A DNA stretch of 64,000 bases from contig NW_026889754.1 in the NCBI RefSeq assembly GCF_033153115.1, forward strand, positions 4,278,001 to 4,342,000, written 5' to 3'. Below are positions 15,522 to 64,000 of this stretch, piece after piece (position 1 is the stretch's first letter; every line of letters begins with the position of its first letter). A program made the position numbers and the translations under genes. The notes under the pieces were generated by a model that was not told where the DNA came from, did not search any database, and saw nothing but the letters and a program-made list of their open reading frames with translations. This stretch comes from Saccostrea echinata (taxonomy: Eukaryota).

Positions 15522-15865
15522 ACAGAGATATCTCTAATTTTAGAGAGATACCTCTTTCACTTACAGAGATATCTCTTTTCCTTTGAGAGATATCTCTTTC
15601 GTTAAGAGAGATATCTCTTAGCGTTAAAGAGATATCTCTTTCACTTAGAGAGATATCTCTTTCACCTAGAAAGATATCTCTTTTTTTCTTTGAGAGATAT
15701 CTTTCCAAGTTAAAGAGATATCTCTCAAAGTAAATGAGATATCTCTCTAAGTTTACCTTAAGAGATATCTCTCAAAGTGAAAGAGATATCTTTCAAAAGT
15801 GTCCAAAAGAGATATCTTTCAAGCAAAAAGAGATATCTCTTTACTGTAAAGAGATATCTCTCTAC
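15522..15865. repeat. Foldback array of ~21-bp units with palindromic core AGAGATATCTCT
   Basis: About 16 gagatatc cores; spacers are T-rich in the left half and A-rich in the right half. Confidence 0.85.
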
Positions 15866-16147
15866 ATTATTTTTATTTAAAAAGCATTTTTAATGACTTC
15901 TCCCTTTACCGGAAGTAAGCTTTATATTCACGGAAATGCATCAAATCAAAACGAAAGTAGAGACGAGAAAGTTAAAAAACAGTTGGTGTTTTATGGTATT
16001 TGTGAGCAAATTACTGACTTGCAGGTGTAACAATGACCCCAAGATACGACACAAAAAGGAAGCTGTCCTTCTACAAGAGCTTGATCAACTGATTTAATGG
16101 AAAGAAGTTCAGAGTAAGAAACTTAGCCGATCATGAAACATTGTAAA

Positions 16148-44000: not shown

Positions 44001-45463
44001 AATTCATATTAGAACTTTATTTTTTACAAGCTGATAATAACCTCATTTTCACAGGTGTTGTTTTCTTTGAAATAAATATTGAAAACTGTATATAAACATA
44101 ATTTTTCCAACTGCTCACAAACAAACAACATATAAAAATACATAATATGGACAAAAGTTGGACTGGAAAAGGTGGTAATACTTTAAAATGAACACATTTC
44201 TTACATCGTACATTTTTGTTTAAAAATGGTAGTATTTCAATTTATCTGAACTCTTTAATTCCAATTTAAATAAAGAAAAAAATATTTATATATAACATTT
44301 TTAATATCTTTGTTGTAACAAAAATACTTCCATTAAAATATGATATTTCATTTTCATAAATTGTTGTAAAATAATTTGATAGCTTTATTTAGTTACAGAC
44401 ACTACAAAATCCAAATATTTAAGATTGGCTTTGGGCATTGAAAATAAATTTTTTTTTATAAACTTCTGAACTATTAGAAATCAGATTTAAATGATTTATT
44501 AAATACAAAGTATATGAAAATTAGATATTATTTCAAGTAAAAACAATTTACTTGCAGAACTAATGCTAATAGGAAAGAAATATTCAATTTAGAAAATTCT
44601 GAAACTTCCTGTTTTCACATAACTATATAACTAAAGTGCAGAACAAAAGTTCTCTAACTCACTAACGTTTTATGAAAACTATTTAGATTTTGATACACTG
44701 GTCAACGAAGTCAATCAACCGAATTTAAGGGTTACGGACACTACACGAGACTGTCTGGCAAAAATGAACTTTTTCATAGTCTTTTGCCATCTTCTTTTTC
44801 ATTTTTTTTTTCGTTTCAGTTTCTCCTGATTTTTTGATTCTTCGGGTCTCAACTCCATCTGATAAAAGCATACCATAACCAATATACTTTGTCTATTTTA
44901 ATTTATACACTTGTAACGTTATACAGGTATCATGTGCAAGTAGAAAAGTCAAATCTTAAAGAATGTAGCTCACTTATTTCTTTAATGTATTTTTATTTTA
45001 TTCTGTGAAGCATTCTGTTTTTCTTCAAACAGTTAAATATACAATACTTAATCTGAACTTGGTGTAATTTTAGTTGTTTTCCTACGAGTCTTTTCCTACG
45101 TAAGTGGCCTTGAATCCTAAAGCAGTTATTTTTTTGCACTGTTCAGACATGAAGCATTAGTGAACATATGATTTACAGGAAATTGATGGAAATCAGCGGC
45201 GTTATTATTACGATGCATGCTCCTGGAAAAAGTACTGGAATGCATTCATAGGTCTTGGATTTTCCACTTCCTGTTTTGGTACCGACATAAACATGTTCTG
45301 TCCATTACAGCCTTCACAGCTTTCTTTTGATTCGGTCTGAGCGAGGGAATATTAAATCTTCTGCAAATATCGGCTTCGATCTTATCTTCCATGGACGAGC
45401 CTTTTTTTGATGGTTACTGCTCATGTTATGTAAACTCTGATTGGCTGAAAGAAGTATAAGGAG

Positions 45464-45630
45464 CCTGGATGGCCGGGTCAACTGAGTGCACTTTTGTCCC
45501 CCCAGATCCTGGATGGCCGGGTCAACTGAGTACACTTTTGTCCCCCCCCCCCCCAGATCCTGGATGGCCGGGTCAACTGAGTACACTTTTTTTAGTGCCC
45601 CAGATGACCGGTTCAATCTAGTATACACAC
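45464..45630. repeat. Subterminal GC-rich tandem repeat (~44-bp unit, 3 copies plus 1 degenerate)
   Basis: cctggatggccgggtcaactgagt.cactttt starts at 45464, 45508 and 45559. Confidence 0.9.
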
Positions 45631-45861
45631 TGGAAAAACCCAAGTAAAAAAAAAGGGGGGGTCTACGTTTAATCTACGTTTTGTGCTGACTCAGGCCTAG
45701 GCAATACACAATCTTGGCATCGATTCAAGTATACCATTGTGACGTCATGTGTGTCATTCACACAGAGCAAACCTCTCTCTATTTTCTGAAAACGGAAAAA
45801 ACAATAACACAGTCAAAAGTGTGCAAGATGATTTATTCAAAGTAAAAAATGTACATAATAT

Positions 45862-46179
45862 TTACTTTTTCTTCTGGAGTTTCAGGGTCTTCTCCGTCTG
45901 GGTAGCAGGAAGTTTCCTCTTGTTGTTAGCCTGCTTTTGATCCTGACTAGTCTCTATTTTCTTTTCTAGATTTCCAATCTCATTCATTATCACTCCTCTA
46001 AACACACGAATCTCAGTAATCATGTCTTCTTTAAACTCACAAATAGTCTGTTGAAGTATCTCCATTACATTGGTCATTTGATCTAAGATATCGCATATCA
46101 AACTTCTTTCATTTCCTTCAATACTATCCTGTGTCTCTGGTAAGGTTGCAGGTAAATTCATGGACTTTTCCTCTGCCAT
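45862..46179 (-). CDS. Small coiled-coil hypothetical protein divergent from PolB
   Basis: 105-aa ATG ORF with heptad-like acidic helix; AATAAA follows on the minus strand (~45831-45836). Confidence 0.55.
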   Translation of the reverse strand: MAEEKSMNLPATLPETQDSIEGNERSLICDILDQMTNVMEILQQTICEFKEDMITEIRVFRGVIMNEIGNLEKKIETSQDQKQANNKRKLPATQTEKTLKLQKKK

Positions 46180-46320
46180 ATTTTTTTACGTCTGTCTAGT
46201 ACCAAGTGCCCACTAAGACTGATCCTAAAATTTCCAGCTCTGCTTTTGTACGTACTGTGTACGTCTCAATACTTAGTCTTGGATCAGCGAGCTACCTAGG
46301 CATTGTGACTTCATACACTG

Positions 46321-46375: not shown

Positions 46376-49300
46376 ATGAATTTTGATAGTGCCTTGAAAC
46401 AATTGTTACATGCACAACAACTTATGAGATGGAAAAAACGGGAGAAAGAATTAGAAAGAATTATTTCTCGACAGAGAACCAGAGAATTAGTTCTCAGGAA
46501 AAAAAATGCCAGATTAATGGAAAGATTAAAGAGAGCCAAAGCCAACCGAGCTCAACATCTACAAGTTTTAAGGAATCTACCTGAAGAAGAACTACCCTCT
46601 CCGTCTTCATCACCACCTCATTCACCACCACCACCACCGAAGCCAAAGACCATTTCCCAGTATTACCAACTGAGACTCAATAAAGCTAAGCATTCCAGAA
46701 AATTTAAAGCTAAAGAAGATGTCTACAGTGTGAATTTTAAAGAATTTCCAGAGGAGGAAAACAGAGGCTTTGTTCAGCGATTATTTAGAGACATGCTACA
46801 GAATGTCAAATATCAAATGCAGTGTAACCCTAACGATTATGTACGCCTGAACATTCACCACCCTTCTCTGGATTCCGACATTTGGTGCGAGTTTACGCAA
46901 TGTAAACATTTAAACGAGGACGTCATTTTAGACAAAATAGAAGCCGTGCAACAATCCAAGAAAGATTTTAAACTGGGAGACGGGTCTATGGAATTCGACA
47001 TGTTTCACGTCAAATATCCAGAAGGCAGTGGTGGACAGAATACCAAACACCTGATGGTCAACAAGGACAGTTTTAAGAAAAATAAACGATGCATCGTTCA
47101 GATCGACAATCCTTGGGATAAATTTTGTTTAGCTCGAGCCATTGTAGTCACCCGGTTACACAGTCAAAAACCGGAAAATCCAGAGAGTTTAGTTGAATGG
47201 GAAAAATTATGGAAACGCATGAGGTTAGGAGATGTAAGAGCTAATGACCAGAAAAACGAAGCTATAGCTCTCATGGAACAAGCCGGGTGTGATATTCATC
47301 AGCCTTGTGGACCCGAAGAATGGGGAAAATTACAACAGGTGTTAGCCCCTCGCTATCGACTGAAAATATTTCAGTTCAAGTCCACCTCCTCTAAACTCGG
47401 TTTAGAGCCCATATACAAAGGCGTCGGAGATGGAACTTGTTTAAATGTTTTGTTAGACCATCATCATTACAATGCTATTTTGTCTATGCCAGGTGTGACA
47501 GGCAATCAATACTATTGTGATCATTGCGATGTGGGCTACAGGAAAATCACAGACCATCGTACCAAGTGTCCTTACCGATGTTCCTTTTGTTTAACGGACA
47601 CGCCCTGCCCTCCAGACGGGAGCCACATTCAATGTTATCAATGCCAGGGATTTTTTCAGAGCAGAACTTGCTACGAAAACCATTTACGACCTCACAGTAA
47701 GAATACGGCCACAACAGTATGCAGTTTAATGGGACGATGCGACCATTGTGAGAAATGGATGCCTAAAATGTTACTCCCTCATCATCATTGCGGAGGACAG
47801 AAACAATGTAAGATCTGTAAGAAAACTGTAGACACGGATCATCAGTGCTACGTTCAACTGAAGCCTGAGAAAAAGAAAAAGAAAGGCAAAGAGACATTAC
47901 AGTTTTATATTTATTTCGATTTCGAATGTACACAAGAAAACGGCATCCACGTCCCTAATTTATGTGTGGCACACCGCGTATGTCAGCATTGCGGACACTT
48001 ACCCATAGAAGATCCCTGTCCTCACTGTCGACACATGGGACCCCGTCAACACGTGTTTAAAGGGCCAGATACCTTAAAACACTTCATGGACTGGTTATTA
48101 CAACCCGACACAGGCAATAAGAATTCCGCCTTATTACACGACGAGGCCATCATCATTGCCCACAATTTCAAAGGATATGATGGACAGTTCATTTTAAATT
48201 ACCTGGTGCATTTCGCCTGCATGACGCCTACAGTCATCATGAACGGCAGTAAAATCTTATCCATGCAAATCTGCGGATTGAAATTCATCGACTCGTATAA
48301 TTTTTTACCTTTTGCTCTGTCTAAAATGCCCTCTGCTTTCGGATTCACCGAACTGAAAAAAGGGTATTTCCCTCACTTTTTTAATACAGAACAGAACCAG
48401 AATTATGTGGGGCCTTATCCACCGGCGGCATTCTACAATCCGGACGACATGTCTATAAGTGGACGACAGGCTTTTTACCAATGGTACGAACAACAAGCCG
48501 GAAAAGTGTTTGATTTCCAGAAGGAATTTTTAGACTATTGTATTTCAGACGTCGATATTTTACGACGATGCTGTGCTCAGTTTCGAGCCACTCTCAAGAC
48601 CTTAGTCCATGTAGACCCCTTCCAGGAATCCATCACTTTTGCCAGTGCGGCCAATTTAGCTTACCGTCGAGGATTCATGCCCGAAAATACCATTGCCATC
48701 ATTCCCAACATGGGGTATCAGCCTGCGCGTCAATATTCCGCCAAAGCCTGTCGTTGGTTAAGCTGGATGAGTCACCAGAGCGGATCTCACATACGACATG
48801 CTAGAAACGGAGGAGAAGTGAAGATCGGAAGTTATACTGTAGATGGATACCAGGAAGCTACTCGTACCATCTACGAATTTTACGGATGCTATTGGCACGG
48901 ATGCCCTACTTGCTATCCCAATTTACAGACCGAAACTCATCCTCACCGGACACAATTTACTTACCAGGAATTACACGAGGAAACCTTAAGGAGGAATACG
49001 GTCTTAGAGGAAATGGGGTTTTCCGTACATAGTATCTGGGAACACGATTTCGATCAACAAGTACAAAGAGAGGTGGCATTACAGAATTATGTACGAGATC
49101 TGGACATTCCAGATCCTTTGAACCCCCGAGAAGCCCTGTACGGAGGCCGCACCAATGCTACACGCTTGTATTGTGAGGAGGGGGACATGAGATACGTGGA
49201 CGTCTGTTCCTTATACCCTTACGTGTTAAAACACAGACCTTTTCCCTTAGGCCATCCTCAGATCATTACAGACCAATTCCAGGACGTGAGAACTTATTTC

Positions 49301-50455
49301 GGCCTCATTCACTGTCGGGTCTTACCACCCCGAGGGCTTTATCACCCCGTTTTACCTTATCGCACAGGAGGCAAGTTATTATTTCCATTATGTCAAACTT
49401 GTGCGGAACGACAGGACTCTACTTCTAAACATCGATGTCAACACACAGACCAGGAACGCAGTCTTACAGGTACTTGGGTGACTACAGAATTACATAAAGC
49501 CTTAGACATGGGATATACCTTAGAGCGGATTTACGAGGTTTGGCATTTTCCAGAAAGCAGTCAAGATTTATTCAGATCTTACATCGATACCTTCTTAAAG
49601 ATCAAACAGGAAGCCTCTGGATTCCCACCTGATTGTCAGACGGAGGAACAGAAACTAGATTACATTCGTAAAGTCATAGACAGAGAAGGCATTAGAATGG
49701 ACCTATTAAGTATAGAAAAAAATCCGGTGCGAAGAACCATAGCCAAACTCTTTTTAAATTGCCTGTGGGGAAAATTCGCTCAACGCCTGTTATTACCTAA
49801 AACTCGATACATGACCGAAGAAGAGGAATTACAGCAACTCTTACAAGATTCGACCATTGACATCAAAGGGCTAGAACTCTTAGAAAATAAAGAGCAGCCC
49901 GAATCGGACATAATGCTGGTGAATTATCAAGAGAAACAGGAATTCGTAGAAGAGTGTCCCTTCGGAAACGTGGTACTTGCCTGTTTCACTACCGCTCATG
50001 CCCGATTACACCTCTATGAGACTTTACAACCTTTAGGAGATCGGGACCTTTATTTCGATACGGACAGTATCATATACCAACATAAGGAGGGACAATTTAA
50101 TCCTACCCTTGGCCACAGTTTAGGAGAATGGACCGACGAATTAGACGGGGACCACATTATTAAATTCATGTCAGGAGGTCCTAAAAATTATGCTTACCTC
50201 ACCGCCAAGGGAAATTCCGTGTGTAAAGTCAAAGGATTGACTCTTAATTATCGGGCTTCCAATATCGTGTCACCAGAGACATTAGAAAAAATGCTCAAGA
50301 AAGAAACGGATGAAATCCAAGTCTCGTATCCTTACAAAATACAGACGACTCGTCAACATGAAGTCAAGACAGTACCTTTAGAAAAACAATATAGAATTGT
50401 CTATGATAAGAGACAGATCATGAATGATTATAATACTCTACCTTATGGTTATTAA
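46376..50455 (+). CDS. polB: Protein-primed family B DNA polymerase, 1359 aa, uninterrupted
   Basis: ExoI YFDFE, ExoII HNFKGYD, ExoIII YCISD; Pol motifs DVCSLYP, KLFLNCLWGKF, YFDTDS and KNY. Confidence 0.96.
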   Translation: MNFDSALKQLLHAQQLMRWKKREKELERIISRQRTRELVLRKKNARLMERLKRAKANRAQHLQVLRNLPEEELPSPSSSPPHSPPPPPKPKTISQYYQLRLNKAKHSRKFKAKEDVYSVNFKEFPEEENRGFVQRLFRDMLQNVKYQMQCNPNDYVRLNIHHPSLDSDIWCEFTQCKHLNEDVILDKIEAVQQSKKDFKLGDGSMEFDMFHVKYPEGSGGQNTKHLMVNKDSFKKNKRCIVQIDNPWDKFCLARAIVVTRLHSQKPENPESLVEWEKLWKRMRLGDVRANDQKNEAIALMEQAGCDIHQPCGPEEWGKLQQVLAPRYRLKIFQFKSTSSKLGLEPIYKGVGDGTCLNVLLDHHHYNAILSMPGVTGNQYYCDHCDVGYRKITDHRTKCPYRCSFCLTDTPCPPDGSHIQCYQCQGFFQSRTCYENHLRPHSKNTATTVCSLMGRCDHCEKWMPKMLLPHHHCGGQKQCKICKKTVDTDHQCYVQLKPEKKKKKGKETLQFYIYFDFECTQENGIHVPNLCVAHRVCQHCGHLPIEDPCPHCRHMGPRQHVFKGPDTLKHFMDWLLQPDTGNKNSALLHDEAIIIAHNFKGYDGQFILNYLVHFACMTPTVIMNGSKILSMQICGLKFIDSYNFLPFALSKMPSAFGFTELKKGYFPHFFNTEQNQNYVGPYPPAAFYNPDDMSISGRQAFYQWYEQQAGKVFDFQKEFLDYCISDVDILRRCCAQFRATLKTLVHVDPFQESITFASAANLAYRRGFMPENTIAIIPNMGYQPARQYSAKACRWLSWMSHQSGSHIRHARNGGEVKIGSYTVDGYQEATRTIYEFYGCYWHGCPTCYPNLQTETHPHRTQFTYQELHEETLRRNTVLEEMGFSVHSIWEHDFDQQVQREVALQNYVRDLDIPDPLNPREALYGGRTNATRLYCEEGDMRYVDVCSLYPYVLKHRPFPLGHPQIITDQFQDVRTYFGLIHCRVLPPRGLYHPVLPYRTGGKLLFPLCQTCAERQDSTSKHRCQHTDQERSLTGTWVTTELHKALDMGYTLERIYEVWHFPESSQDLFRSYIDTFLKIKQEASGFPPDCQTEEQKLDYIRKVIDREGIRMDLLSIEKNPVRRTIAKLFLNCLWGKFAQRLLLPKTRYMTEEEELQQLLQDSTIDIKGLELLENKEQPESDIMLVNYQEKQEFVEECPFGNVVLACFTTAHARLHLYETLQPLGDRDLYFDTDSIIYQHKEGQFNPTLGHSLGEWTDELDGDHIIKFMSGGPKNYAYLTAKGNSVCKVKGLTLNYRASNIVSPETLEKMLKKETDEIQVSYPYKIQTTRQHEVKTVPLEKQYRIVYDKRQIMNDYNTLPYGY

Positions 50456-50522
50456 AAACATACTGTATTTCAAAATGTGTTTTTATTTTATGTGGGGAAA
50501 ACCCTTAAAAAATGAAGGGGGT

Positions 50523-50558
50523 TATAAAAAGGGGGCAAAAATATTTTAACACTTCAGT
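50523..50558 (+). promoter_or_regulatory. TATA + Inr promoter of IAP
   Basis: TATAAAA at 50523 and TCAGT at 50554; implies the true ATG is 50560. Confidence 0.6.
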
Positions 50559-50559
50559 C

Positions 50560-51102
50560 ATGGCTGTTCATTCTAGGGAGCCAGAGGGGGTTCCTCATTA
50601 CCCTAACTATGCTCTGCTCTTAAAGAGAGAAGCTACCTTTAAAGAGGGATGGCCCGAGTCTTTAAAAGGATTATTACCCAACCTAGCCAAAGCCGGATTT
50701 TATTACAGGGGAGTGGGTGATAAGACCATCTGTTTTCATTGTGGTATGACTTTAAACTGCTGGAAACCCACAGACGATCCTTATGTAGAACATGCTTATT
50801 GGAACCCTAATTGTCCTTACATCAATACCTACAAAGGACGTGAGTGGGTGATGATCGTATTCATTAACCATTTACTCCGGGTGGGATACAAAGTTTCACC
50901 TGAAATTAAACCTCTACTAGAGCAAACCTTTACAGAGATTCAGGCCACAGGAAAATGTCACATTTGTTTAGAGGGAGAATTACAAATGGCTTTACTCCCT
51001 TGTGGACACATATGTTGCTGTTCATTATGTGCTCCCACCTTCCGGTATTGCCCCATCTGTCGATCCGATGTGAAGAGAACCCAACGTATATTTCTGTGTT
51101 AA
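50560..51102 (+). CDS. iap: Inhibitor of apoptosis: one BIR domain + C-terminal RING (ORF track starts at 50512)
   Basis: BIR: REATF..W..LAKAGFYY..D.TICFHC...W...DDP..EH..WNPNC. RING: CHIC...LPCGHICCCSLC...CPICR. Confidence 0.92.
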   Translation: MAVHSREPEGVPHYPNYALLLKREATFKEGWPESLKGLLPNLAKAGFYYRGVGDKTICFHCGMTLNCWKPTDDPYVEHAYWNPNCPYINTYKGREWVMIVFINHLLRVGYKVSPEIKPLLEQTFTEIQATGKCHICLEGELQMALLPCGHICCCSLCAPTFRYCPICRSDVKRTQRIFLC

Positions 51103-51144
51103 ATAAAAAGGATTGAAACCCTATTTTTCTCTTCATTTATCATC

Positions 51145-51786
51145 ATGCAACCTGACGAGACACTCCCGTCTTTTCAATTAAAACACGAATTTACCATGGT
51201 GGTAGCAGGACCATCTAAATCGGGGAAAACGGAATTTGTTAAGAAATTAGTGGAAAATTTACATTGGATTACCCCCATGCCACAAAAAATTGTCTGGTGT
51301 TATCGAGAATGGCAACCTGCTTATACTTCTTTAACAGATCAGATCTCCTTCATTCGAAATATTCCAGAAGACGATGAGAAATTAGTAGCCAATTTAAGTA
51401 TTCCTCACTTACTCATTTTTGACGACATGATGGGAGGAAAAGCCATCGAATCGATCGTGGATTGGTTTACCCGTAAAGCGCATCATCGGAATACCAGTGT
51501 GATTTACATTACTCAGAATTTATTTGATCGGGCACCACAACATCGCACTATTAGTTTGAATGCTCATTATTTAGTGTTGTTTAAAAATCCCAGAGACAAA
51601 TCTCAAATCAGTGTCTTGAGTCGACAGTTAGCCTTACCTCATTTGATGTCGGCCTATCAAGAAGCCACCAGTGTTCCTCACGGGTATCTCCTGGTTGACT
51701 TGAATCCACGCACCCCAGACGAATACAGATTGAGAAGTCGATTGTTTGAATTGTTAACTATACACATGCCACAAGAGTATAAATAA
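51145..51786 (+). CDS. A32/FtsK-like genome packaging ATPase
   Basis: Walker A GPSKSGKT, Walker B LIFDD, HHRNTSVIYITQN and FKNPRD. Confidence 0.92.
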   Translation: MQPDETLPSFQLKHEFTMVVAGPSKSGKTEFVKKLVENLHWITPMPQKIVWCYREWQPAYTSLTDQISFIRNIPEDDEKLVANLSIPHLLIFDDMMGGKAIESIVDWFTRKAHHRNTSVIYITQNLFDRAPQHRTISLNAHYLVLFKNPRDKSQISVLSRQLALPHLMSAYQEATSVPHGYLLVDLNPRTPDEYRLRSRLFELLTIHMPQEYK

Positions 51787-51831: not shown

Positions 51832-52779
51832 ATGGGTCGACCTCTCTCAGCCAAGAGTAAATTAGTGAAAACGTTACGACGTTTACAGCGGGAGCGAGAT
51901 CCTGCCAAGCGAGCCCATTTAATCGAATTAGGGCGTAAAGCCTTATTGAATTGGTTTGCTATGGGAGCTCGAAATTTGATACGTGGGGTCTTACCTATCA
52001 ATAAACAGACTCAAAAGTTTATTAATAATCATCGTCAAGATTTAAGTATCATAGCCGATAAGTCGGCGAGTGATCAAGACAGAAAAAATGCCATTTTAAA
52101 ACGCGGAGGAGCCGGATTTCTAGGCGGAGTCATCATTCGTCATTTATTTAAATGGAATGCACCTAAGAAACGACGTGTTCGTCGTTTAAAAAGTGTGGTA
52201 GTACGAGTCAATAATAAGAAACAAAGAGTATTTCCAGATTGGATGGTGCGAGTAGGAGGAGCAGCTCAAAAGACCAGAAAGAAGAGAAAACCTCCTAAGA
52301 GAAAACCTCAAAAGAGAAAACCTGCTGCTCAAAGAAAAGGTGGTAGAAAGAAAAAAACGACTCCCAAAACTCCAGCTCAACGAAAAGCCATGCCTGAAAG
52401 TTTAAAAAACGAAATCAATCAGTATTATAAAGAACAAAGACAAAAAACTATTGGGGAGTTATTAAAAAAACAAGCTGAAATGAGAATGGATCGTCCTATG
52501 GGACCCATAGGCAGTCAAAGAGCTCCCGATTTAGAAATGTTTCCTCAAGTCAATGTGGGAATTCCCTCTCCTAGAATTAAAGTACCCATTCACACTCCTA
52601 GAATTAAAGTACCCATTCACACTCCTAAAATAGCACGCTTTCAACCTCTGACCGCTTCTACACCTCAACTTCCTAAAGGAATGAGATATAAATGCCGATA
52701 TTGTTCCAAATTCTACGTCACCCAGAAAAATAGAGACAAACACGAGAAGGCCAAACACGACATGTATGCTCCTCCTTGA
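51832..52779 (+). CDS. Highly basic putative virion core protein with C-terminal C2H2 zinc finger
   Basis: K/R-rich centre; YKCRYCSKFY...HEKAKH; N-terminal part resembles the next ORF; TATA at 51778 and Inr at 51809. Confidence 0.7.
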   Translation: MGRPLSAKSKLVKTLRRLQRERDPAKRAHLIELGRKALLNWFAMGARNLIRGVLPINKQTQKFINNHRQDLSIIADKSASDQDRKNAILKRGGAGFLGGVIIRHLFKWNAPKKRRVRRLKSVVVRVNNKKQRVFPDWMVRVGGAAQKTRKKRKPPKRKPQKRKPAAQRKGGRKKKTTPKTPAQRKAMPESLKNEINQYYKEQRQKTIGELLKKQAEMRMDRPMGPIGSQRAPDLEMFPQVNVGIPSPRIKVPIHTPRIKVPIHTPKIARFQPLTASTPQLPKGMRYKCRYCSKFYVTQKNRDKHEKAKHDMYAPP

Positions 52780-52829
52780 GAGTATAAAAAGGGGAGAAAC
52801 CTGGGACATGTCCTCATTTTAACCCCAGG

Positions 52830-53228
52830 ATGGCTAAGAAGAAGAAGAAAAGAGGCTGTTCTACACGATTAAAACCTCATTGGCCTCTTTTAAGAGTGTT
52901 ATCGGACCCTCACTATTCCTCTCCATTAAAGACGGGTATTTTAAAACATTGTTCTGGAGATTGTATTCTCAAAATCTGCGAGATCGTGTACAACCTATTA
53001 AAAGGAGTGTTACCTCCTAGTTCGGCTCATAAACGAAAACTAGCTCCTAAGAAACACATCTTCAGGAGACTGGTCAAACCTCAATCTGTCCAGAAACGAC
53101 GAGCTTTATTACTTCAACAAAAAGGAGGAAACATTTTACCCCTATTAATCTCAGCAGCACCTTTATTGTTGGATGCCGGTCAATCCGTCTATAAAGTCCT
53201 CAAGAAGAAGAAGAAGAAAAAAATATGA
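52830..53228 (+). CDS. Small basic Polinton protein (core-protein-like)
   Basis: ICEIVYNLLKG.LP ... QKGG + hydrophobic helix; TATA at 52783 and Inr at 52814. Confidence 0.75.
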   Translation: MAKKKKKRGCSTRLKPHWPLLRVLSDPHYSSPLKTGILKHCSGDCILKICEIVYNLLKGVLPPSSAHKRKLAPKKHIFRRLVKPQSVQKRRALLLQQKGGNILPLLISAAPLLLDAGQSVYKVLKKKKKKKI

Positions 53229-53980
53229 GTCGTAAAATGGTGTTAGTTCCTGAAGTCTTATTAAATGATCTCAAGGCCAAATTACCCAAACCTCCGGAAT
53301 TTCAATCCACCATCAGTTTAGGTCAGGAATTGGACGAGATTACAAGACGTGAAGATTTAACCCCAGAAGAAAAAGTTGCTTTATATGGCCAGGAACTTCA
53401 TCGATATAGGAATTATTTACAACAAGCTAGACAGGAACCTATTTCTAAACTGAAAATTCCGGCAGCAGCAGCAGCTCCAGCCCCAGCAGCAGCAGCATTA
53501 CCAGCAGCTGAAATTGACGATGAAATTCTTGAAACAGTGAATAAAAACATGAAAAGAAAAGCTGGATTATTATTAAATCATTTAAAGAAAAACCCTAAAG
53601 TATTAACTTGGAATAAAGAAGGTGAAATTAGTTATCGAGGTCAAAAAATTCCCGATTCTAACATTGTGGATTTAATGGCTGATAGTATGAGATCTCAGTC
53701 TCGTAAACATCATCCGGTTACTACAGGATTAGAACAATTTGCTCAAGCTTTAAAAGAAACGCGTACTCCTCTGGAATACGTGAGCAATGGAAACCTTATA
53801 AAAGCCATGCAGAGACCTGGAAAAATCAGTACTCCTAAAAGTCACGAAATAGACGATAGTGGATTTTCTTCCTTTTTTGACACTCCAGTGAGTAGACCCA
53901 TAGAAGATCGAGGAACCGTCATTAAAAAACCCATTTCAACTCCTGTAGGGACAAGGGTAGGATCCAGGTATAGTCCTTAG
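53225..53980 (+). CDS. Polinton hypothetical protein; probably extended to 54099 before a 1-nt deletion
   Basis: KMVLVPE start and LTWNKEGEI...SNIVDL core; the shifted frame continues to WLSLPKI*, overlapping the integrase ATG. Confidence 0.75.
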   Translation: MSRKMVLVPEVLLNDLKAKLPKPPEFQSTISLGQELDEITRREDLTPEEKVALYGQELHRYRNYLQQARQEPISKLKIPAAAAAPAPAAAALPAAEIDDEILETVNKNMKRKAGLLLNHLKKNPKVLTWNKEGEISYRGQKIPDSNIVDLMADSMRSQSRKHHPVTTGLEQFAQALKETRTPLEYVSNGNLIKAMQRPGKISTPKSHEIDDSGFSSFFDTPVSRPIEDRGTVIKKPISTPVGTRVGSRYSP

Positions 53981-54095: not shown

Positions 54096-55181
54096 ATGAA
54101 AAAGAAACAAGTAGAAGATATTTTAAAAGAGATTTATTATGATCCTAAAAGAGGGTACGGAGGAATACAAGCTTTGTATCGTCAGGTCAAACCTTTAGGA
54201 ATTTCCCTGAAAAAGATTCGAGAATGGTTAAAAGAGCAAGATACTTATACTTTACATAAACCCATTCAAAGAAAATTCCGGAGACAACAGACTAGAGTGA
54301 CCGATATAGACGAACAATGGCAATTAGATTTAGCAGATGTGTCCAGTTTAAAGAAACATAATGATGGATATACGTTTTTATTATGTGCCATTGACGTCTT
54401 ATCTAAATATGCCTGGGTAGTGCCTTTAAAACAGAAAACAGGAAAAGAAATGATTCGAGGATTACAAGAGATTTTTCAACAAGACGGTCGACGTCCCGTC
54501 CGCATTCAATCCGATCAAGGAAAAGAATTTACCAATCGAGAATTCTTACAAGCTTTTAAATCCATTCATTTTTTTACTACTCGTAATACGGACACTAAAG
54601 CCAGTATCGTGGAACGATTTCAGCGTACACTCAAAGCACGCATGTGGCGTTATTTTACTCGTCATAAAACCAGACGGTATTTAGAAGTTTTACCGGATTT
54701 AGTGTATGCTTACAATCATACCTATCATCGGAGTATCAAAAGAGCCCCAGTTCAAGTGAATGCTTCTAATGTGTTAAAAGTCTGGAAAACTTTATATGGG
54801 ATATCGAATCGAAAACAGTTTCTTAAACCTCAGTTTAAAGAAGGAGATCAGGTCCGCATCAGTAAAGCCAAACGCACATTTGAAAAAGGATATTTACCTA
54901 ACTGGACCACAGAATTGTTTACCATTTCTAAAAGAGTTCCTGGAAGGTATCCTTACGTGTATAGGGTGCAAGATTATAACGGAGAGGAATTAGAAGGGAC
55001 TTTTTACGAAAAAGAATTACAAAAGATCATTAAAAAAGACGACGTGTACGAAGTGGAGGAAATCTTGGGGTATAAAAAGCGACGCGTCGGGAAAAAAATC
55101 ATTCAAGAAGTCAAAGTTCGGTGGAAAGGATATCCCCCTAGTTTTGATTCATGGATTCCCCAAACGGATCTCATCAAATAA
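54096..55181 (+). CDS. int: RVE (DDE) integrase with C-terminal chromodomain
   Basis: WQLDLAD, IDVLSK, QSDQGKEF, VERFQRTLK, KGYLPNWT; chromodomain YEVEEIL..VRWKGY..DSW. Confidence 0.95.
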   Translation: MKKKQVEDILKEIYYDPKRGYGGIQALYRQVKPLGISLKKIREWLKEQDTYTLHKPIQRKFRRQQTRVTDIDEQWQLDLADVSSLKKHNDGYTFLLCAIDVLSKYAWVVPLKQKTGKEMIRGLQEIFQQDGRRPVRIQSDQGKEFTNREFLQAFKSIHFFTTRNTDTKASIVERFQRTLKARMWRYFTRHKTRRYLEVLPDLVYAYNHTYHRSIKRAPVQVNASNVLKVWKTLYGISNRKQFLKPQFKEGDQVRISKAKRTFEKGYLPNWTTELFTISKRVPGRYPYVYRVQDYNGEELEGTFYEKELQKIIKKDDVYEVEEILGYKKRRVGKKIIQEVKVRWKGYPPSFDSWIPQTDLIK

Positions 55182-55411: not shown

Positions 55412-55444
55412 TGTCTTTAAAAAATAGATACACCACAGAGTATT

Positions 55445-56884
55445 GTGACACTCTCCAGGGGTAGAGCTTATTATGATAATTTACTAAAATAGGATGTCAG
55501 GATGTTTTCTTTATTTACTCTTGTCAGGATTTGTTTTAAGTCCAGAATAACCAGACTGACTTTCCAGCTTAAATAAACAGACTTTTCAGTTTACAGGTTT
55601 ATTGTTCATATATAACCATCTCAATGACATAAATACACACCATATGTCAATACAACACACAAAGATTCACTTTGTTATACGTACACTACAACATCAATAC
55701 AACCTTGGCTCTATTTTATAATTCCAAATTATAGAAATAGGGGGATCACTTTATCCGAAGTATATATCCTGGGAATAACCCTTGATATATATATATTTAT
55801 GTGAAATTAAACTGTTATGCCTGAAGAATTATATGAAGTCTCTTAAAATAATCAAGAGATCTCAATAATGATCAACGAAGTCCAGAATTCAGAGAAATAA
55901 TCTCTAAATAATCTTAGATAATAATATTAGTTGACTTTTATGAAAATAAAGTTGTTCCTAGTTCTATTCCTATTAAAATTCAGATGGTAATTAATTAAGG
56001 GATTAACCCATTAATTAAATACGCTAATTCCTAGTCCTTTTTCTATAAAAACTGCGAAATTCGTTAATTTGCACTAATTAGGTGATTAATTAAGGGATTA
56101 ACCCGTTAATTAGATTACCGTTTATCCAAAGGCAGAAGGAATAACCTTCTATTTCTTTACACTTACTTCCGTGATTTTGGTAACGTGTATATGCCAAAAG
56201 TAAAGCTGGAAAAAGTGCCGGAGAAAGTCTACCGGCTGTTTATATAGACTTCTCAATCCACCGGGGTAACACACGCGCAAGGTTGGAAACCACCGGAGAC
56301 ACTATCGGTGCTTCCATATAAAATAATTAATACAACTTTAATTATACATAAAGTAACATAACTGTAAACATTTTACTACAAAGAATCTTCGTCACTCAAA
56401 TAAATGTCACAACCCGGAAGAAATGGCAATATACATTCAAAAAGACCGCCAGATGAAAATAGACAGTGACCTAAGGTCAAATGCATAAATTACAACTCTA
56501 GCGCGCCATACAATCAGTTCCGGTAAAATGGCAGTTCACATGTGACGAAGGTAAATAGAACATGAAAACTTTGTTATTTACATGACATATCAGTAACGTT
56601 TAACAATATCCCTGTAACACTGTGATAAAAGAAGTTTATGCAATGTAAATATGTTATAAACAACAATGCATCAAGTCATGAACATTCATATATACCACGT
56701 TATTTACAAACATCGAGCACATGTTAATTTAGGGGTCGTATAACAACACAAAATATTACTAAATCAGCTGATCACAGAAAACGATCAACCGTTTGCATAA
56801 ATGATTACTACAAGTATTATTATTTATATCAACATGACAATGCCATAACATAATGTATGCCTATCAGAGACACATGGCTCCACA
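55445..56884 (-). repeat. LTR sequence: one long 3' LTR, or two abutting LTRs (55445-56410 and 56411-56884)
   Basis: tgtgaca at 55445, tgtcaca ending at 56411; minus-strand PPT aaaaaggggagtaaaa directly followed by TGTGG at 56884. Confidence 0.6.
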
Positions 56885-57294
56885 TTTTACTCCCCTTTTT
56901 AAGTTTCAATGTCCTCATGAAACTATACATATTAACACAAAATATTTATGCAACATTATAAACATTAATAACATATCAACATCAAACAACATATTTTTCT
57001 TAAATTGGGACAATATGCTAATTCAAATAACAGTAAGGTTCAATGAATTAAAGTGTTGTAAACCTTTAAATAAGCACTAGGTCTTGCCAAGTAAAAATAT
57101 TTGTAATTTACAAATACAACACCATCCAACTCACTCAAAATTCTTCATGTATAGGTGTAATGTACAATAATTTCAACCATCTTAGTAACAAAAAAAATGA
57201 TTCTTGAAATATATGAAGACAAGAGTGTACACTTAAAATAAGACTATAATCATTACTAACTCATTTTTACACTCTTATATACACCTTATGATAT

Positions 57295-58182
57295 TTAATT
57301 TTTCTTTACTACAAAGGACTTAACTCTTGGGTTCCTTGGCGATGCTCTGCTAGATCTTTCAAACCACCTTCTTCTGTACCCTGACACTGCTATTCTTCTA
57401 TCCCTTTCTCTCCTCTCCATGCTTCTGAAACATCCAACAAGTTCATCCGATATCATGGTGTTTTTCCTTATGCCAGTATTAAGTGAGGTGAGGAGCTGAT
57501 TCTGTTGTGATAGTAATTTCTGTAGGTCTGTCATGGCTGTGAGAATGTTTTGTAGAATAGGAGTATCAGAGGTTTCCTTGTGGATAACGCTTTCCTCAGG
57601 TTCAGGGACATCAAATTCCGTGGAATCTTCTGCTAAAATATCCTTTAACAGGTCATATTCTTCCTGATCATTAAGTAAGGGTAAGTCATCTGTCCAACAT
57701 GGTGTCTCTTTAGCAGGTTCTGGCTTAGTTTGGTTGTTCTTGCATGTTTCCGCAGGTTCTCCATTAGTAATAGTAGCAGGTTTATCCTTGTTTATAATGT
57801 TGGATGGAATGGATGTCACCTGGACCCTTTGACTCCACACCTTCTTGCTTTCTGTTTCTGACAACCTTTGCATCAGGGTTCCATCTATTGGGCGGGGGTT
57901 AGGGTTCTTAACCAACATCTCCTCAGGTGCTGGAGTGGCTTTTCCATTCTTTGTCAATTCTAGGATAGCAGTTTTATGGGGTTTGTACCCCTTCAGGTGT
58001 CTGGTCAGGTCCCTCTCTGTCCTAGACATGTATTGGCACAAAGTGCAATAAAATGGCACTTCCTCTGGTTTAAGATGCGTTTTATAAATGTGCGCCTCCA
58101 CGTATCTCTTCTCCCCTCTGTATGTTAAGCACTTTAGACATTCATATGCAAATCCCCTTTTGTCTATTTTCTCCATCTCCAT
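57295..58182 (-). CDS. Gypsy accessory ORF3 with two C2H2 zinc fingers and a coiled coil, 295 aa
   Basis: YECLKC...HIYKTH and FYCTLCQY...HLKGYKPH; lies between pol and PPT; acceptor-like tttcttgttag 9 nt before the ATG. Confidence 0.75.
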   Translation of the reverse strand: MEMEKIDKRGFAYECLKCLTYRGEKRYVEAHIYKTHLKPEEVPFYCTLCQYMSRTERDLTRHLKGYKPHKTAILELTKNGKATPAPEEMLVKNPNPRPIDGTLMQRLSETESKKVWSQRVQVTSIPSNIINKDKPATITNGEPAETCKNNQTKPEPAKETPCWTDDLPLLNDQEEYDLLKDILAEDSTEFDVPEPEESVIHKETSDTPILQNILTAMTDLQKLLSQQNQLLTSLNTGIRKNTMISDELVGCFRSMERRERDRRIAVSGYRRRWFERSSRASPRNPRVKSFVVKKN

Positions 58183-58459
58183 AGTTGTAAGCTAACAAGA
58201 AAGATGAAGCTCATGAATATAATGAACATTCATGTACTATTCAAATATACTATATAAACTTTCCTAACATATTTATTTTAAGTTTTAAAAGGGCATCCCA
58301 GGATATTAACAGATCATACACCAGGTAATAAAGGGAAGCAATCAGCCAAGGTTATATTTTACAAAACATGGCATACATTCAGATACACGATAGTAGAAGA
58401 CAATCTACTTAATACGTCGTATAGTAAACAAATGTTTAAGTGGGTAATCTTGTAGTATG

Positions 58460-58488
<29 letters not shown>

Positions 58489-58490
<2 letters not shown>

Positions 58491-61400
58491 ATATATCTTC
58501 CTTCCATGGCGGGTGATTATCTCCCTCATATTTCTTCAGTTTGTCTACATTCAGACATTTCTGGTTTCCCTTTTGATCCATCTGTATCCTGTATAACAAA
58601 TCGTTGATCTTTTCTTTAACTACAACTGGACCCAAGTATAAGGGTTGGAGCTTCTTGCTTTCTCCTGGTTTTCTAGTTTCATTCAGAATCATGACAGAAT
58701 CCCCAGGTTTGAAATGTTGGTCCTTACTCTGTTGATTATATTGGTCCTTTTGCCTGTTGTGAGCTTTATCTAGATGTTTTCTTGCAAGTTGGTGTGCTTT
58801 TGTAAGTTTGGCTCTCAACTTTTCAGCGTATTCCCCTACATTCAACAGCTCTTGTACATCGTTTGTTCTGCCATATATTAAATCGACTGGTAATCTTACT
58901 TCCCTCCCTAACATGATCAAATTCGGTGTCATCTTTGTGCTCTCTTGTGTGCTAGCTCTGTAGGCTGCAGTCAGGTATTGCAGATTGAGGTCCCATTCTG
59001 TACCATCCCCTCTAATAAAGGATTTAATCATTTGGATCAATGTTTTGTTAAATCTTTCTACAAGTCCGTTGCATTTAGGGTTCCTAGGACTGGTTCGTGT
59101 CTTTTGTATTTCTAATAACTTGCAGACTTCCTGGAATAATTCTGCTTCAAAACATCTCCCCTGGTCTGTGTGAATAGATAAAGGACATCCAAATTTTGTG
59201 ATAAACTCTCTGCATATTACATCTGCACAGGTCAAGGCTGTTTGATCTGGGACTGGATAAGCCTCAGCCCATTTACTGAAATGGTCAGTTAGGACAAGAA
59301 TATACTGATTTCCTCTAGGAGTTTCTGGTAATGGTCCTACTAAGTCAATAGATATTCTGTCGAGCGGTGCTCCAACACGCATATCTCCTAAAACAGCTCG
59401 AGGTTTTCGGTAAACAAACTTCATTCGGGAGCATACATCACACTTACAGATCCATAGGTTTACATCCTCCCTCATTTCAAACCAGTAAAACCTCTGTTGT
59501 AGTTTCCTTTTTGTTTTCTTTTGGTCTAAATGTCCTCCAAGTAGACTATTATGTGTCAACCGTAAAACTTCAGATTTCATGCTGTCGGGAACCATGAACT
59601 GAGCATGTTTTGAGAGTCCATCTTTAGTATGGTACTCTTTGTACAAAATTCCATCTCGTATGAACAGGGATGACCATAAATGCCAGTAATGACGTAGCGC
59701 TGGACTTTCAGTTACAATGGTTTTATAATCGGGACGTTGATTCTTCTTTACCCATCTCGCAACCTCTTTCAAAGTATTATCCTCATTTTGAAGTTGAGCT
59801 AATTCTTGTGTTCCATATAGTCCAAAACTGGTAAGTGGTTGACATAGAGCTGTTGATCTGGTGTTTATTCTGTTGACCTTTTGTGGTATGTCAGACTTAT
59901 CTCCTAGACTAGATTTGATTTCCTGTTCCATCGACACACTTAGATTTGGTCCTATCATTGTTTGGGACTTTCTTTTACATTTTTCACAGGGTCCACACTT
60001 CAGTGATTCAAGCATATCTGCATTACAACAGTTACATTCTCTTGGATTACAGATGCGAGACATAGCATCAGCATTTTGATGCTTGGTTCCTGGTCGGTAT
60101 TCAACAACAAAATCAAATTGTGACAAAATCTCGATCCATCTGGCTACCCTTCCTTTTGGTTCACGTAGTTTAAACAGCCATACTAACGCTTGATGATCTG
60201 TCCTGATTTTAAATTTTCTGCCCAATAAATACTGACGGTAATATTCTACAAAATAGCGGATTGCTAGAAGTTCCTTGTCTGTCACACAGTAGTTTGATTC
60301 AGCTTTGTTCAGTGTTCTGCTTCCATAAGCTATTACTCTCTCCCTTCCTTCTTGTTCTTGGCTTAAGACTGCTCCAATTGCACATTCGCTGGCATCAGTA
60401 TCCAGGATGTATGTTCCTTGATCCGTGGGATAGGCCATTACTTCAGAACTAACAAGTGCTTCCTTTAAGGATTGAAAGGCTGTCTGACATTTACCGTCCC
60501 AAATAAACTGAACATTTTTCTTGGTCAGATTTACCAATGGTCTTACAATATTTGAGAAACCTTGAATGAACCGTCTATAGTAACTTCCCATGCCTAAGAA
60601 CTGTCGGACCTCTGTAACATTTTTAGGTACTGGGCATGTAAGTATTTTACTGATGTTGTCTGGATTTGGTCGTACTCCCTTTTCATTGATTACATGACCA
60701 AGAAAACAAACTTCTTCCTGTAGCAATTCACATTTTTCTGGTTTTAGTTTCAGACCTGCTGCTCTTATCCTGTCAAGTACATCTTCTACTCTTTTCATCT
60801 GTTCCTCGAAATTTCTCCCAAATACTATAATATCATCAATGTATATCAGGCAGGTCAACCACTGCAGTCCACTTAGAGCTATCTCCATGACTCTTTGGAA
60901 TGTTGCTGCTGAGTTGCAAAGGCCAAATGGCATGGACGTAAATTCATATAAGCCATACTTTGTCACGAATGCAGTCTTGGGTATATCTTCCTCCCTAACT
61001 GGTATCTGAAAGTATCCTAAGTTAAGTCAAATGTAGAGAAAAGCTTTGCTCCACTTACAGCGTCCAAACAATCTTGTATCCGTGGGAGCGGAAATGCATC
61101 AATTTTTGTTACTTCATTTACTTTTCGATAATCTATGCATGGCCTTATTTTGCCGTTCTTCTTCCGAACAAGAACAATAGGTGATGACCAAGGTGAATTC
61201 GATTCTCTTATCACCCCTTGTTTCTTCATTTGTTCGACTGCTTTCTTCTCTTCATCTGACAAGGCAATAGGAACACGGCGTGGATGTTGCTTAATTGGTT
61301 TGGCATCTCCTGTATCTATATTGTGTTCATACAGCTTGGTATTTCCTATATCATTTTCATTCATGGAAAATACTGCCTGGAATTTGATAAGGACATCTTT

Positions 61401-62366
61401 AATCACTTTTTGTTCTTCTGGAGTTCTGCCTATGATAGATTTATCATACAGTGTCTGAAGGTGGGGTGGTACAGTCCTATTCTCTAGAGAGTGGGAAGAT
61501 TCGATGTCCTGTTGGACTGGTTCTGTTTGTTGTACTTTCCTAGAAATGGCCTCTACATTATTCAGATCTGTTGTCAGCACTTCAGCTTCTTCTAAATGGC
61601 CTATGACTTCACATTTCTTTATCTTAGCAGGTGTAGAAAATGGGTTGAGCACTCTTACTGCTACTCCTTGGCCTTCTGGACTTTGACATACACTCACTAC
61701 TTCATGGGCTACTGCAACTCCACAGCGTGTTACAAATAAATCAGATGGTTCTAGTACGTAATCTACATTCTGGTCAAAATCTGTCTCCTTGACATCAGGT
61801 TCTACTCTTATTATAGCCTCACTCTCACTCGGAATATGGTAATCTTCACAAGCCTTTACTTTTAAAATTTTATCAGGCATTCCTACCCGGAACCCTGGAA
61901 TCCTTCGACCCTGCCAGTCTATCACTCCTTGTGATAGTAGTATATCTACTGGTCCGCCTGGGCCATTTTGCAATATATCCATTCCCAACAAACCCTCGTC
62001 AGAAATGTCCGCTACAACTACCTCCTGTTGTAGTTTCTCATCACCAAGTTCGACTGAAAATACCGCTTTACCATATTCTTGTATTTTTGAGTCATCTGCA
62101 CTCTTCAGTGGTGTGGCTGATACTAATTTTGGTCTTGTATTTTCTGGGATCTTCCCATATGTTTCATCTGATATTAAAGTTCTGGATGCTCCAGTGTCAG
62201 TAGTAAACATAACATCAACATTTTCAATTTTTCCTGGTACATAGAACCCATCATACAATGTTCTCTCTCTCCTATTGGTTACATCTAGTTGATTGTCCAG
62301 TAGAACATTTTCTTCGGTTTTCTGGGTCTCCTCTAGGCCTGCAGAGTCAACCCTCTGCCATTTAAA
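58489..62366 (-). CDS. pol: Gypsy pol (protease, RT, RNase H, integrase) with a 1-nt frameshift near 61018
   Basis: DTGA, CIDYRKVN, MPFGL, YIDD, DTDAS, TDHQAL, H..H..CDVC, IDLVGP, TDQG and VERFN. Confidence 0.93.
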
Positions 62367-64000
62367 GTACTGCTGACTTCATCAGTTTGAGTCTCTTCTG
62401 TCCTCTGCCTTGGTTTAAATTCTCTAGCTCTTGGGTTAAGTTTCTCTTCTTTTGAACTTTCATGATGGCTTTTATTCCACGTGTTGTTTGGGCATTCCCT
62501 ACTGAAGTGGCCTGGTTTGTGACAAGTAAAACATAGATTTTCTGTCCAGTCTCGTTGTTTTAAATCTTGTCTGTAGTTTCTTCTTTCTGTAGTTTGTGAT
62601 CCTATTTTCCCATAGTTTCTTTTGTATTCTTCTTTTCCTGTATCTGCTCTGTGCACTCTTTTGTCTTGATTGACCCCATTATCCCCTCTGTCTGAGAGCT
62701 GTATTTTTCTTACTCTGTGATGACCACTGTTAGGACTGTTCTCACCATAGCGATTGGAGGTCTTGTATTCTATTACTTCATTATAATGCACGACATGAAG
62801 AACAGCCTCATCTATTGTCTGTGGATCTTTGTTCAACTCTACATATATGCGTGCTTGATTATCTGTAAGACCAGCTAGAAAATGAGAAACTAGATCTTCC
62901 TGCCTAGTCTCTGCATCTCTTGTAGGATGTGCTTTATCATATAATCTCTTGAGTTCTGCTGCGAATTCTTCTGGAGATTCGTATTTCAGTTGTTTCCTAT
63001 AGTTGAATTTTGTTCTATAACTTTTGCAAGATTCTATCTCTCCAAAGCGACTCTTTAATTCTTTAATTAACTGTTTATAATTCTTAAGAGTTGTCGCCTT
63101 CAGTTGACCATAAGTAAAATCTGCTTGAATTCTGGGTAAAATCTGACGTAGTCTTTCTTCATCATTCCATCCACTTAGTTCAGCTACAGCTTCAAATCGT
63201 GTGTGCCATACTGCCCAGTTTTCCTTGCCTGTATAAACTGTAGCTTAGAGGACTCTTTAGCTTTAGGTTTAAACAACTTGTTTGTAGATACTGTAGATAC
63301 ATCAGAGTTGTGATCATCCATTGACTCATCTTCTGACCCACTTGTTTCTCTTTGAACAATGCTTCTGTGATGCCTTCTATGCTTCTTTTTGTAAGACTTT
63401 GTAAGACTTTGACGGGGTTATTTCCCTTGTTGTGACTCCTGTGGTATTTGTTGCAAACATCTGCTGGCTGTTTGATCCATGATCACTGTATGCAGGACTT
63501 TTTAGTTGTTCTCTGTTGATGACTTGGGCCATATTTGTTTTGTTAGACTGGTTACCATGGTGATTAGTTGAGCTCTCTGGGCGACCTATCAAACTTTCTC
63601 CTCCTCCCTCTGTTTGATGTGTCATAGTTTTGACTGCTGCATCCAAAACAGACTGCATGGATTTTACAGTTGATGTCATAGTAGTCATAAAAGACTTCAT
63701 AGTGTCCACGAGATCAATCTGACCTCTACTGGGCAGAATACAGGGCTCACCCATAGTACTCTGACCAACGTTCTGTTCATCAAGGAGAGGATCCACGGTG
63801 CAGGTATCTATACCATGTAGCTGGTTCACCATTTGATGCATGACCGGATTTCCAGTCATATTGCATCTTGGACTATTTCTGTGGATTGGGGAGTTCCTGT
63901 TTGATGGATTAATTGTGGGCATTCTATTTTGACGTATTGTAGGAGGAGTTATCTTCCCTTTGTCATCTTCATCAGTGCTCTCATCTGTAGCATGCACTTC
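62333..64000 (-). pseudogene. gag: Gypsy gag, frameshifted
   Basis: Capsid-like YTGKENWAVW..RFE and ESPEEFAAELKRLYDKA; zinc knuckle CFTCHKPGHFSREC; frame broken at ~63240-63380. Confidence 0.85.

Follow-up and report, generated by a model that had tools for sequence, protein, structure and literature searches.

The IAP gene and the element that carries it

The window, that is, the whole 64,000-nucleotide stretch of Saccostrea echinata DNA that was analysed, contains an inhibitor of apoptosis (IAP) gene inside a Polinton/Maverick element. The features of the gene and of the element are as follows (positions prefixed by L031 and L032 lie past the end of the window).

45444-45449: TSD GCTGAA, 6 bp; second copy at L032:4611-4616, after the right TIR
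45450-45945: left TIR, begins AGAAGT, ~495 bp, 99% identical to the right TIR
46376-50455, + strand: pPolB, protein-primed DNA polymerase B, 1359 aa, intact (PF03175, E 5.9e-59)
50523-50559, + strand: putative IAP promoter, TATAAAA at 50523-50529 and Inr TCAGTC at 50554-50559
50560-51102, + strand: IAP gene, 180 aa, intronless, one type II BIR and a C-terminal RING
50626-50823, + strand: BIR domain, aa 23-88; Zn ligands C58, C61, H78 and C85; type II marks E77, H78 and W81
50746-50772, + strand: predicted IBM-groove strand, codons 63-71, hypervariable among copies
50950-51078, + strand: C3HC4 RING, aa 131-173, under purifying selection
51100-51107, + strand: overlap of the IAP stop codon with AATAAA (51102-51107)
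51145-51786, + strand: packaging ATPase, A32/FtsK-type, 213 aa (Pox_A32 PF04665, E 3.3e-6)
51832-53980, + strand: three element ORFs (315, 132 and 251 aa) without Pfam match, present in sister elements too
54096-55181, + strand: integrase (INT), retroviral-type with chromodomain, 361 aa (rve E 6.4e-11, Chromo E 1.9e-8)
55444-64000 and on to L031:1-1718, − strand: Gypsy LTR retrotransposon inside the Polinton; LTRs 55444-56884 and L031:278-1718; TSD GTAT
L031:5796-7217: major capsid protein (MCP), 473 aa; nearest Atlas clusters at 0.98, with DJR-like PF21738 on 14-24% of their members
L032:4117-4610: right TIR, ends ACTACT

The preliminary description of this DNA had reported an intact, intronless single-BIR and RING gene between pPolB and the packaging ATPase, and this is borne out: the ORF at 50512-51102 is free of stops and introns, Pfam recognizes both domains (BIR, E 3.5e-21; RING zf-C3HC4_3, PF13920, E 2.8e-11), and the flanking genes are those named. 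The start of the gene has to be moved. It had been placed at 50512, but that ATG lies upstream of the TATA box (TATAAAA from 50523), so translation likely begins at ATG 50560 and yields a protein of 180 aa. The CCHC zinc ligands C58, C61, H78 and C85 are all present; they are invariant across 40 homologs, and no change in them is common to at least two of the 64 distinct copies described below. Residues E77, H78, W81 and C85 correspond to the type II BIR signature (E/Q76, H77, W/H80 and C84 in the numbering of Witkop 2022), and the protein ends in a C3HC4 RING, with a C154S replacement in 3 of the 64 copies.

Relative to the IAP start codon, TATAAAA is located at -37 and the Inr TCAGTC at -6. 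The 30-31 nt spacing between the two motifs recurs in pPolB, ORF315, ORF132, core294, MCP, d101 and Rep226. A regular-expression scan of 13 element genes found both motifs in nine (in c160 the spacing is 28 nt), TATA alone in two, the Inr alone in the ATPase gene and neither in the INT gene. Among 70 IAP copies, TATA is retained in 69 and the Inr likewise in 69. The polyadenylation signal ascribed to the gene is a more ambiguous case. AATAAA does overlap the IAP stop codon, but the same letters form the TATA-like box of the ATPase gene and are also found in sister elements that lack the IAP, and are therefore not exclusively the IAP's own signal. Four sets of contigs presumed to derive from RNA gave even coverage of the whole element, its TIR and spacers among it, and are for this reason uninformative on transcription. 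One contig, from a run labelled as another organism, spans the junction between the 3′ end of the IAP and the ATPase gene at ~87% identity.

To judge by its sequence, the host element is a real Polinton/Maverick (adintovirus), ~22.9 kb long once the Gypsy insertion is subtracted. This copy is interrupted by the insertion (10.3 kb, young, with LTRs 99.5% identical), and its remainder continues past the window end with a split minor-capsid-like gene, the MCP gene, a protease-like gene, RING-like ORFs, a GADD34-like gene and the right TIR. Searches of Pfam and of PDB sequences with the MCP gave no matches. The protease-like ORF had only a weak best match, ASFV S273R (E 0.061). The gene split in two frames in the window's element is one that we take, from its position and motifs, to encode the minor capsid protein. 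The named proteins nearest to those of the element come from S. echinata and S. cucullata, which marks the host as a rock oyster. The Gypsy element bears an extra C2H2 zinc-finger ORF (57295-58182).

Several accessory features were observed in the same DNA. A GADD34/ICP34.5-like PP1-binding gene (L032:2724-3280, − strand; PF10488, E 1.5e-7) lies in two frames here, is also found at loci L110 and L112 and occurs in IAP-bearing and IAP-less elements alike; it is likely a second counter-defence gene of the element, and a literature search for such genes gave only examples from ASFV and herpesviruses. An ORF at L031:9813-10000 and L032:1-306, with a counterpart at L098:792-1304 (− strand), is common to both BIR-bearing families considered below (52%). 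It presumably resembles a macro domain, by its motifs, a label for which Pfam and PDB gave no support; the ORF is missing from two whole sister elements. A paralogous ORF pair (59%; L031:8304-8762, broken, and 9013-9693) has no Pfam match; we take its motifs to be reminiscent of HUH/Rep endonucleases, and Pfam and PDB did not support a Rep-like label. There are further an ORF rich in proline and arginine whose RING-like end is divided between two frames (L032:780-1753, − strand) and a second, cysteine-rich RING-like ORF (L031:2536-2982).

Likeness to the TIR extends, at both element ends, over the 3′ end of a zinc-knuckle gene and the region upstream of it (window 45862-46245; L032:3471-4200). 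A recurrent block containing TGACTCAG and TGACGTCA, which we take to be AP-1/CRE-like, precedes several accessory genes and is also present within the TIR (L031:2330-2470 and 8830-8950; L032:3360-3440; window 45640-45760). Elsewhere in the window there are a decayed Helitron (1-5739; Helitron_like_N, PIF1, endonuclease) and a palindromic 21-bp tandem array (15521-15885) with a AGAGATATCTCT core.

The IAP is fixed cargo of one Polinton subfamily

A search of the genome with the IAP retrieved ~113 loci at 64-100% identity, ~80 of them unbroken (by hand count), a number that may be inflated by haplotype duplicates. All near-full loci examined, the window included, carry the gene between pPolB and the ATPase (70/70), seven decayed loci all retain pPolB upstream, and no examined locus of the window's family lies outside Polinton DNA (0/77). 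A retrocopy of a host gene was considered and rejected on the shared element slot, a best host match of 46-48% identity and a separate clade in the BIR tree; a retrocopy confined to this one insertion, which would have undone the preliminary description, is ruled out by the same synteny.

The ATPase search revealed a sister subfamily at 91-94% identity, with ~30 ATPase loci by hand count. The IAP was found in none of 20 sister loci: in 18, pPolB and the ATPase are separated by a spacer of 62-101 bp, and the other two had no pPolB in the fetched DNA. Two whole sister elements contain no IAP anywhere, and both retain the PP1-binding gene. We therefore conclude that one Polinton (adintovirus) subfamily carries the IAP as fixed cargo, and that the gene is, as had been supposed, an accessory rather than a core gene. 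The ATPase tree weakly favours loss of the IAP in the sister subfamily (UFBoot 77, resting on two proteins). A scan of viral contigs yielded no relatives among 36 stretches, and a metagenome scan yielded five loci, none of them with Polinton genes.

A second BIR-bearing family and the origin of the gene

A BIR-only gene with 16 matches in the genome defines a second family. Twelve of the 13 loci examined adjoin an integrase, and most are also near a capsid gene. Relative to the window's element, INT is 37-40% and the capsid 30-46% identical; since pPolB is absent from the fetched DNA, we call this family Polinton-like. Its features are as follows.

L096, L097, L098, L101, L150-L156, L160 and L162: second-family loci, BIR-only gene with two neighbours, an integrase gene and a gene with double PC4 (PF02229, E 1e-20)
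L159:4433-5576: stranded second-family BIR cassette, 1148 bp; intact ORF of 180 aa; 97.7% identity with copies inside elements

The L159 cassette has no element genes within ~4 kb and is the only case of "seeding" among the loci examined. For the proposal that such elements seed IAP copies in the host genome, the 77 examined loci of the window's family gave no instance, and the second family gave this single cassette. Host multi-BIR IAP genes with very long first exons form tandem arrays at C38:1.98-2.22 Mb and C44:2.00-2.22 Mb of the genome (G000); the two arrays mirror each other and are probably haplotypes.

A BIR tree, built by a quick method from 106 rows and 89 columns (malacoherpesvirus and baculovirus sequences not included), places the window's family together with the records of S. 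cucullata, with a distant copy that has decayed (L099) and with one further protein in one clade (SH-aLRT 99) and the second family in a clade of its own (99). Neither clade falls within the host IAPs that were sampled from the genome, a result compatible with a single origin as well as with separate origins of the two Polinton BIRs. The closest host BIR is only 46-48% identical to the window's IAP, full-length S. cucullata relatives (61-63%) keep all zinc ligands, and a search of representative proteins returned mainly multi-BIR cellular IAPs at ~30-47%. Read from these likenesses, the IAP is best described as a cellular type II BIR-RING gene that was captured long ago.

Selection on the IAP

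In 37 elements with all three genes intact, the IAP had a pairwise dN/dS of 0.88, compared with 0.165 (ATPase) and 0.145 (pPolB), and whole-gene estimates for the IAP ranged over 0.8-0.9. Since values near 1 fit, at face value, the neutral evolution that was to count against a functional IAP, site-level tests were made. We used a self-written codon model (neither PAML nor HyPhy) with fixed tree shape, site classes and internal branches only, on 64 distinct sequences. Log-likelihoods were -3108.5 for the neutral model, -3066.5 for M1a (66% of sites with w 0) and -3044.4 for M2a (11% of sites with w 5.1; 2dL 44), and the neutral model was rejected by 84 log-likelihood-ratio units. The top M2a sites were 3, 64, 67, 108, 112, 115 and 121, the last four in the linker. 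Under the same model, the control genes gave w 0.09 (ATPase, 54 rows) and 0.11 (pPolB, 46 rows), both with 2dL 0.

Counts made without a tree, restricted to alleles common to at least two copies, revealed 6 replacements in the RING against 23.6 expected (p 2e-5) and 2 against 9.4 in BIR codons 72-90. Conversely, there were 16 replacements against 4.5 expected at codons 63-71 and 17 against 7.6 at codons 2-17, i.e., the N-terminus. Purifying selection on the RING and the zinc core is therefore secure, and the gene as a whole, at ~0.9, is under selection rather than neutral.

These results bear on two alternative readings. A captured host gene that decays neutrally as a passenger would account for the whole-gene ratio and the probable loss in the sister subfamily. 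Against this stand the rejection of the neutral model, the deficit of RING replacements, the S. cucullata relatives in which every ligand is kept and the low identity of the best host BIR; the reading is largely refuted by the constraint on the RING and zinc core, and we consider it very improbable. Retention of the copies by the oyster as domesticated stress-response IAPs agrees with the existence of RefSeq models for several copies and with the one stranded, intact second-family cassette, but many copies contain stops or frameshifts and all 77 examined loci are in element DNA. Moreover, the constraint falls on alleles common to dispersed insertions and thus acts during element replication. 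Domestication is, in our estimate, the least credible of the readings weighed here.

The excess of replacements is harder to interpret. The IAP recombines (PHI p 0.001; 0.42 and 0.48 for the ATPase and pPolB controls), and site tests are inflated as a result. In nine recombination-null simulations with three segment trees, 2dL was 0.1-14.6 and exceeded the nominal cut-off in five. When thirds of the gene were each given their own tree, 2dL was 19.0, 8.2 and 5.0, the last value not significant; removal of three mosaic copies still left 37.7. Multi-base changes, which give false positives in selection tests, make up 12 of the 64 amino-acid changes. The window of codons 63-71 was initially chosen post hoc from the same data, and its scan-corrected excess has p 0.007 by steps and p 0.09 with multi-base codon changes counted once. 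For the nine groove-lining codons taken from PMC6360406, six vary, against 15 of the 64 other BIR codons (p 0.014); without mosaic copies, the excess has p 0.003 by steps and 0.054 by alleles.

It may accordingly be asked whether the IAP is functional and purified, with variable sites that are just relaxed and with recombination and multi-base mutations that mimic positive selection. The PHI result, a HFTNWD tract that matches remoter relatives such as P0004, the marginal allele-level tests and the inflated nominal p-values all point that way. However, the observed 2dL of 44 is three times the largest value of the recombination-null runs, the haplotypes of codons 2-17 differ by many replacements and one silent change, a pattern that would not result from import out of a distant donor, and the groove anchors are fixed while neighbouring residues vary. 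We regard this explanation as unlikely, though it deserves to be taken seriously, and conclude that diversifying selection at the N-terminus and at groove-lining positions is likely but not proven.

The BIR groove and a proposed mechanism

In an alignment with cIAP1 (residue numbers and groove-lining set from the available portions of PMC6360406), IAP residues 64-69 correspond to G306-E311, and 73, 77 and 81 to D314, E319 and W323. The residues that anchor the ligand's Ala, W68, D73, E77 and W81 (cIAP1 W310, D314, E319 and W323), are nearly fixed among the copies, D73H being found in 2 of 64. Positions 64, 66, 67 and 69 (306, 308, 309 and 311), on the specificity side, switch between at least six shared haplotypes. 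The equivalent of G306 is Thr in 42, Gly in 19 and His in 3 of the 64. An AlphaFold model built on a 40-row alignment has a pLDDT of 82.7 and fits DIAP1-BIR2 and XIAP-BIR3 at 1.1-2.5 Å.

We propose, as the probable though far from certain reading, that the protein is a counter-defence ligase, which would bind IBM-bearing host antagonists or caspases and ubiquitinate them, its groove tracking or evading a host partner. The IAP would be transcribed from its TATA and Inr along with other element genes; its type II BIR would recognize, on host IAP antagonists or on processed caspases, the ends that start with Ala (IBM); ubiquitination of the bound host proteins would fall to the RING; and the host cell would be kept alive during the element's self-copying. 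Nearly fixed anchors beside switching specificity residues are the pattern that might be expected from tracking of a host ligand or evasion of a host antagonist. Evidence to the contrary comes from the whole-gene dN/dS, which is close to 1, and from the sister subfamily, whose spread took place without an IAP.

The ligase could instead serve as an E3 adaptor for non-apoptotic targets: RIPK/IMD/NF-kB signalling, a host factor involved in restriction or silencing, or a large co-infecting virus. IBM grooves do take non-caspase partners, for example, that of XIAP-BIR2 with RIPK2, described in a portion of PMC6360406; the deep-pocket position 306 is Thr rather than Gly in most copies; and the element has other RING-like ORFs. 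On the other hand, the nearest folds are BIRs that bind antagonists and caspases, and the layout of a single BIR and a RING is common to entomopox-, baculo- and iridovirus IAPs. Non-apoptotic targets thus appear rather improbable to us, and the counter-defence ligase remains our preferred reading.

Polinton copies and the bivalve IAP expansion

That a Polinton carries an IAP is not a new observation. Starrett 2021 (PMC8502044) mentions Bcl2 and IAP homologs in adintoviruses, and the text of its Figure S2 places IAP labels beside the Mytilus and Pinctada maps, so that such genes, apparently in bivalve adintoviruses as well, were on record in the portions of that paper available to us. In the literature searched (full texts, with few subscription papers, in part as excerpts), no paper was found in which bivalve IAP numbers are connected with Polintons or in which a Polinton IAP is tested for selection; the comparison included PMC8905726, PMC7497679 and PMC4061559. 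Apparently new, within that literature, are the selection signal on the IAP, the BIR-only cargo gene in a second Polinton-like family and the filing of copies in RefSeq as host IAPs.

Bivalve IAP counts have been cited, in the excerpts considered, as a basis of host resilience. S. glomerata has 80 IAPs, nearly half of them in two recent clusters, according to the available text of Powell 2018 (PMC6289776), and in Mercenaria, 51 of 159 IAPs are intronless and 1.7-1.9% of the genome is Maverick, again according to partial sources. The terms "Polinton" and "Maverick" occur zero times in the available text of Song 2021 (PMC7831173), Witkop 2022 (PMC8917759), msag078 (PMC13159474) and Powell 2018, three of which invoke retroposition for intronless IAPs. 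A 2025 bioRxiv preprint states that the ORFs of bivalve polintoviruses frequently bear annotations as eukaryotic genes; apoptosis is unmentioned in its available part.

In S. echinata, nine of ten RefSeq proteins named "BIRC7-B-like" or "DIAP2-like" equal element copies from residue 4 on. The best 150 single-exon BIR matches, of 290 candidates, comprise 99 of the window's family, 14 of the second family and 37 of the host by hand count; the 113 of 150 that belong to the two Polinton-type families are not a share of all IAP genes, as intron-split host BIRs score worse. Polinton copies are thus counted as host IAPs, and misannotation is a larger effect than seeding.

It is quite possible, although we hold this only tentatively, that much of the "IAP expansion" described in bivalves, with its dispersed and intronless copies, which has been read as a stress adaptation of the host achieved by retroposition, is the cargo of Polintons from at least two BIR-carrying families, and that the IBM groove of one family is in an arms race with the oyster death pathway. 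This would offer a viral and testable alternative to the retroposition account. Diversifying selection at a counter-defence interface would indirectly indicate that the conflict with the cell-death machinery of the host is still under way, and would point to the host partner. If the proposal is true, these elements still pass through a virus-like replication phase that threatens the cell, which bears on the question of whether animal Polintons still act as viruses.

Comparison with known systems

The adintoviruses of Starrett 2021 likewise combine an IAP homolog with pPolB, INT, ATPase, capsid and protease; the account there, in the portions available, consists of one sentence and map labels, without domain analysis, copy survey, selection test or a link to host IAP counts. 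The "retroposed" bivalve IAPs of the literature excerpts resemble the S. echinata copies in being intronless, dispersed, recently multiplied and single-BIR, with DNA transposons enriched nearby, and differ in the cause given for their multiplication, retroposition for the published genes versus Polinton replication here.

Cellular type II BIR-RING IAPs (ML-IAP/BIRC7, cIAP1 BIR3-RING and DIAP1 BIR2) share the type II marks and the IBM anchors with the window's IAP, and the R-x-F-L motif that ends its RING aligns with that of cIAP1. Unlike them, the window's gene is intronless, resides in a mobile element, lacks a UBA or CARD and belongs to a long-stemmed clade (SH-aLRT 99).

Among viral proteins, the single-BIR and RING IAPs MSV248 of an entomopoxvirus, the Neodiprion NPV IAP and IIV-6 193R have the same compact layout and are the top BFVD folds (E 9e-16 to 2e-11), while their identity to the window's IAP is just 24-32%. 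The OsHV-1 BIR proteins are more distant (24-31%; BFVD fold ranks 15, 41 and 45), and the comparison of folds and identities gave no sign of a transfer from entomopox-, baculo-, iridovirus or OsHV-1 IAPs. Viral IAPs, with baculovirus IAP3 as an example, prevent apoptosis; by analogy, the single-BIR and RING viral IAPs and IAP3 likely share the job of the IAP of the oyster Polinton.
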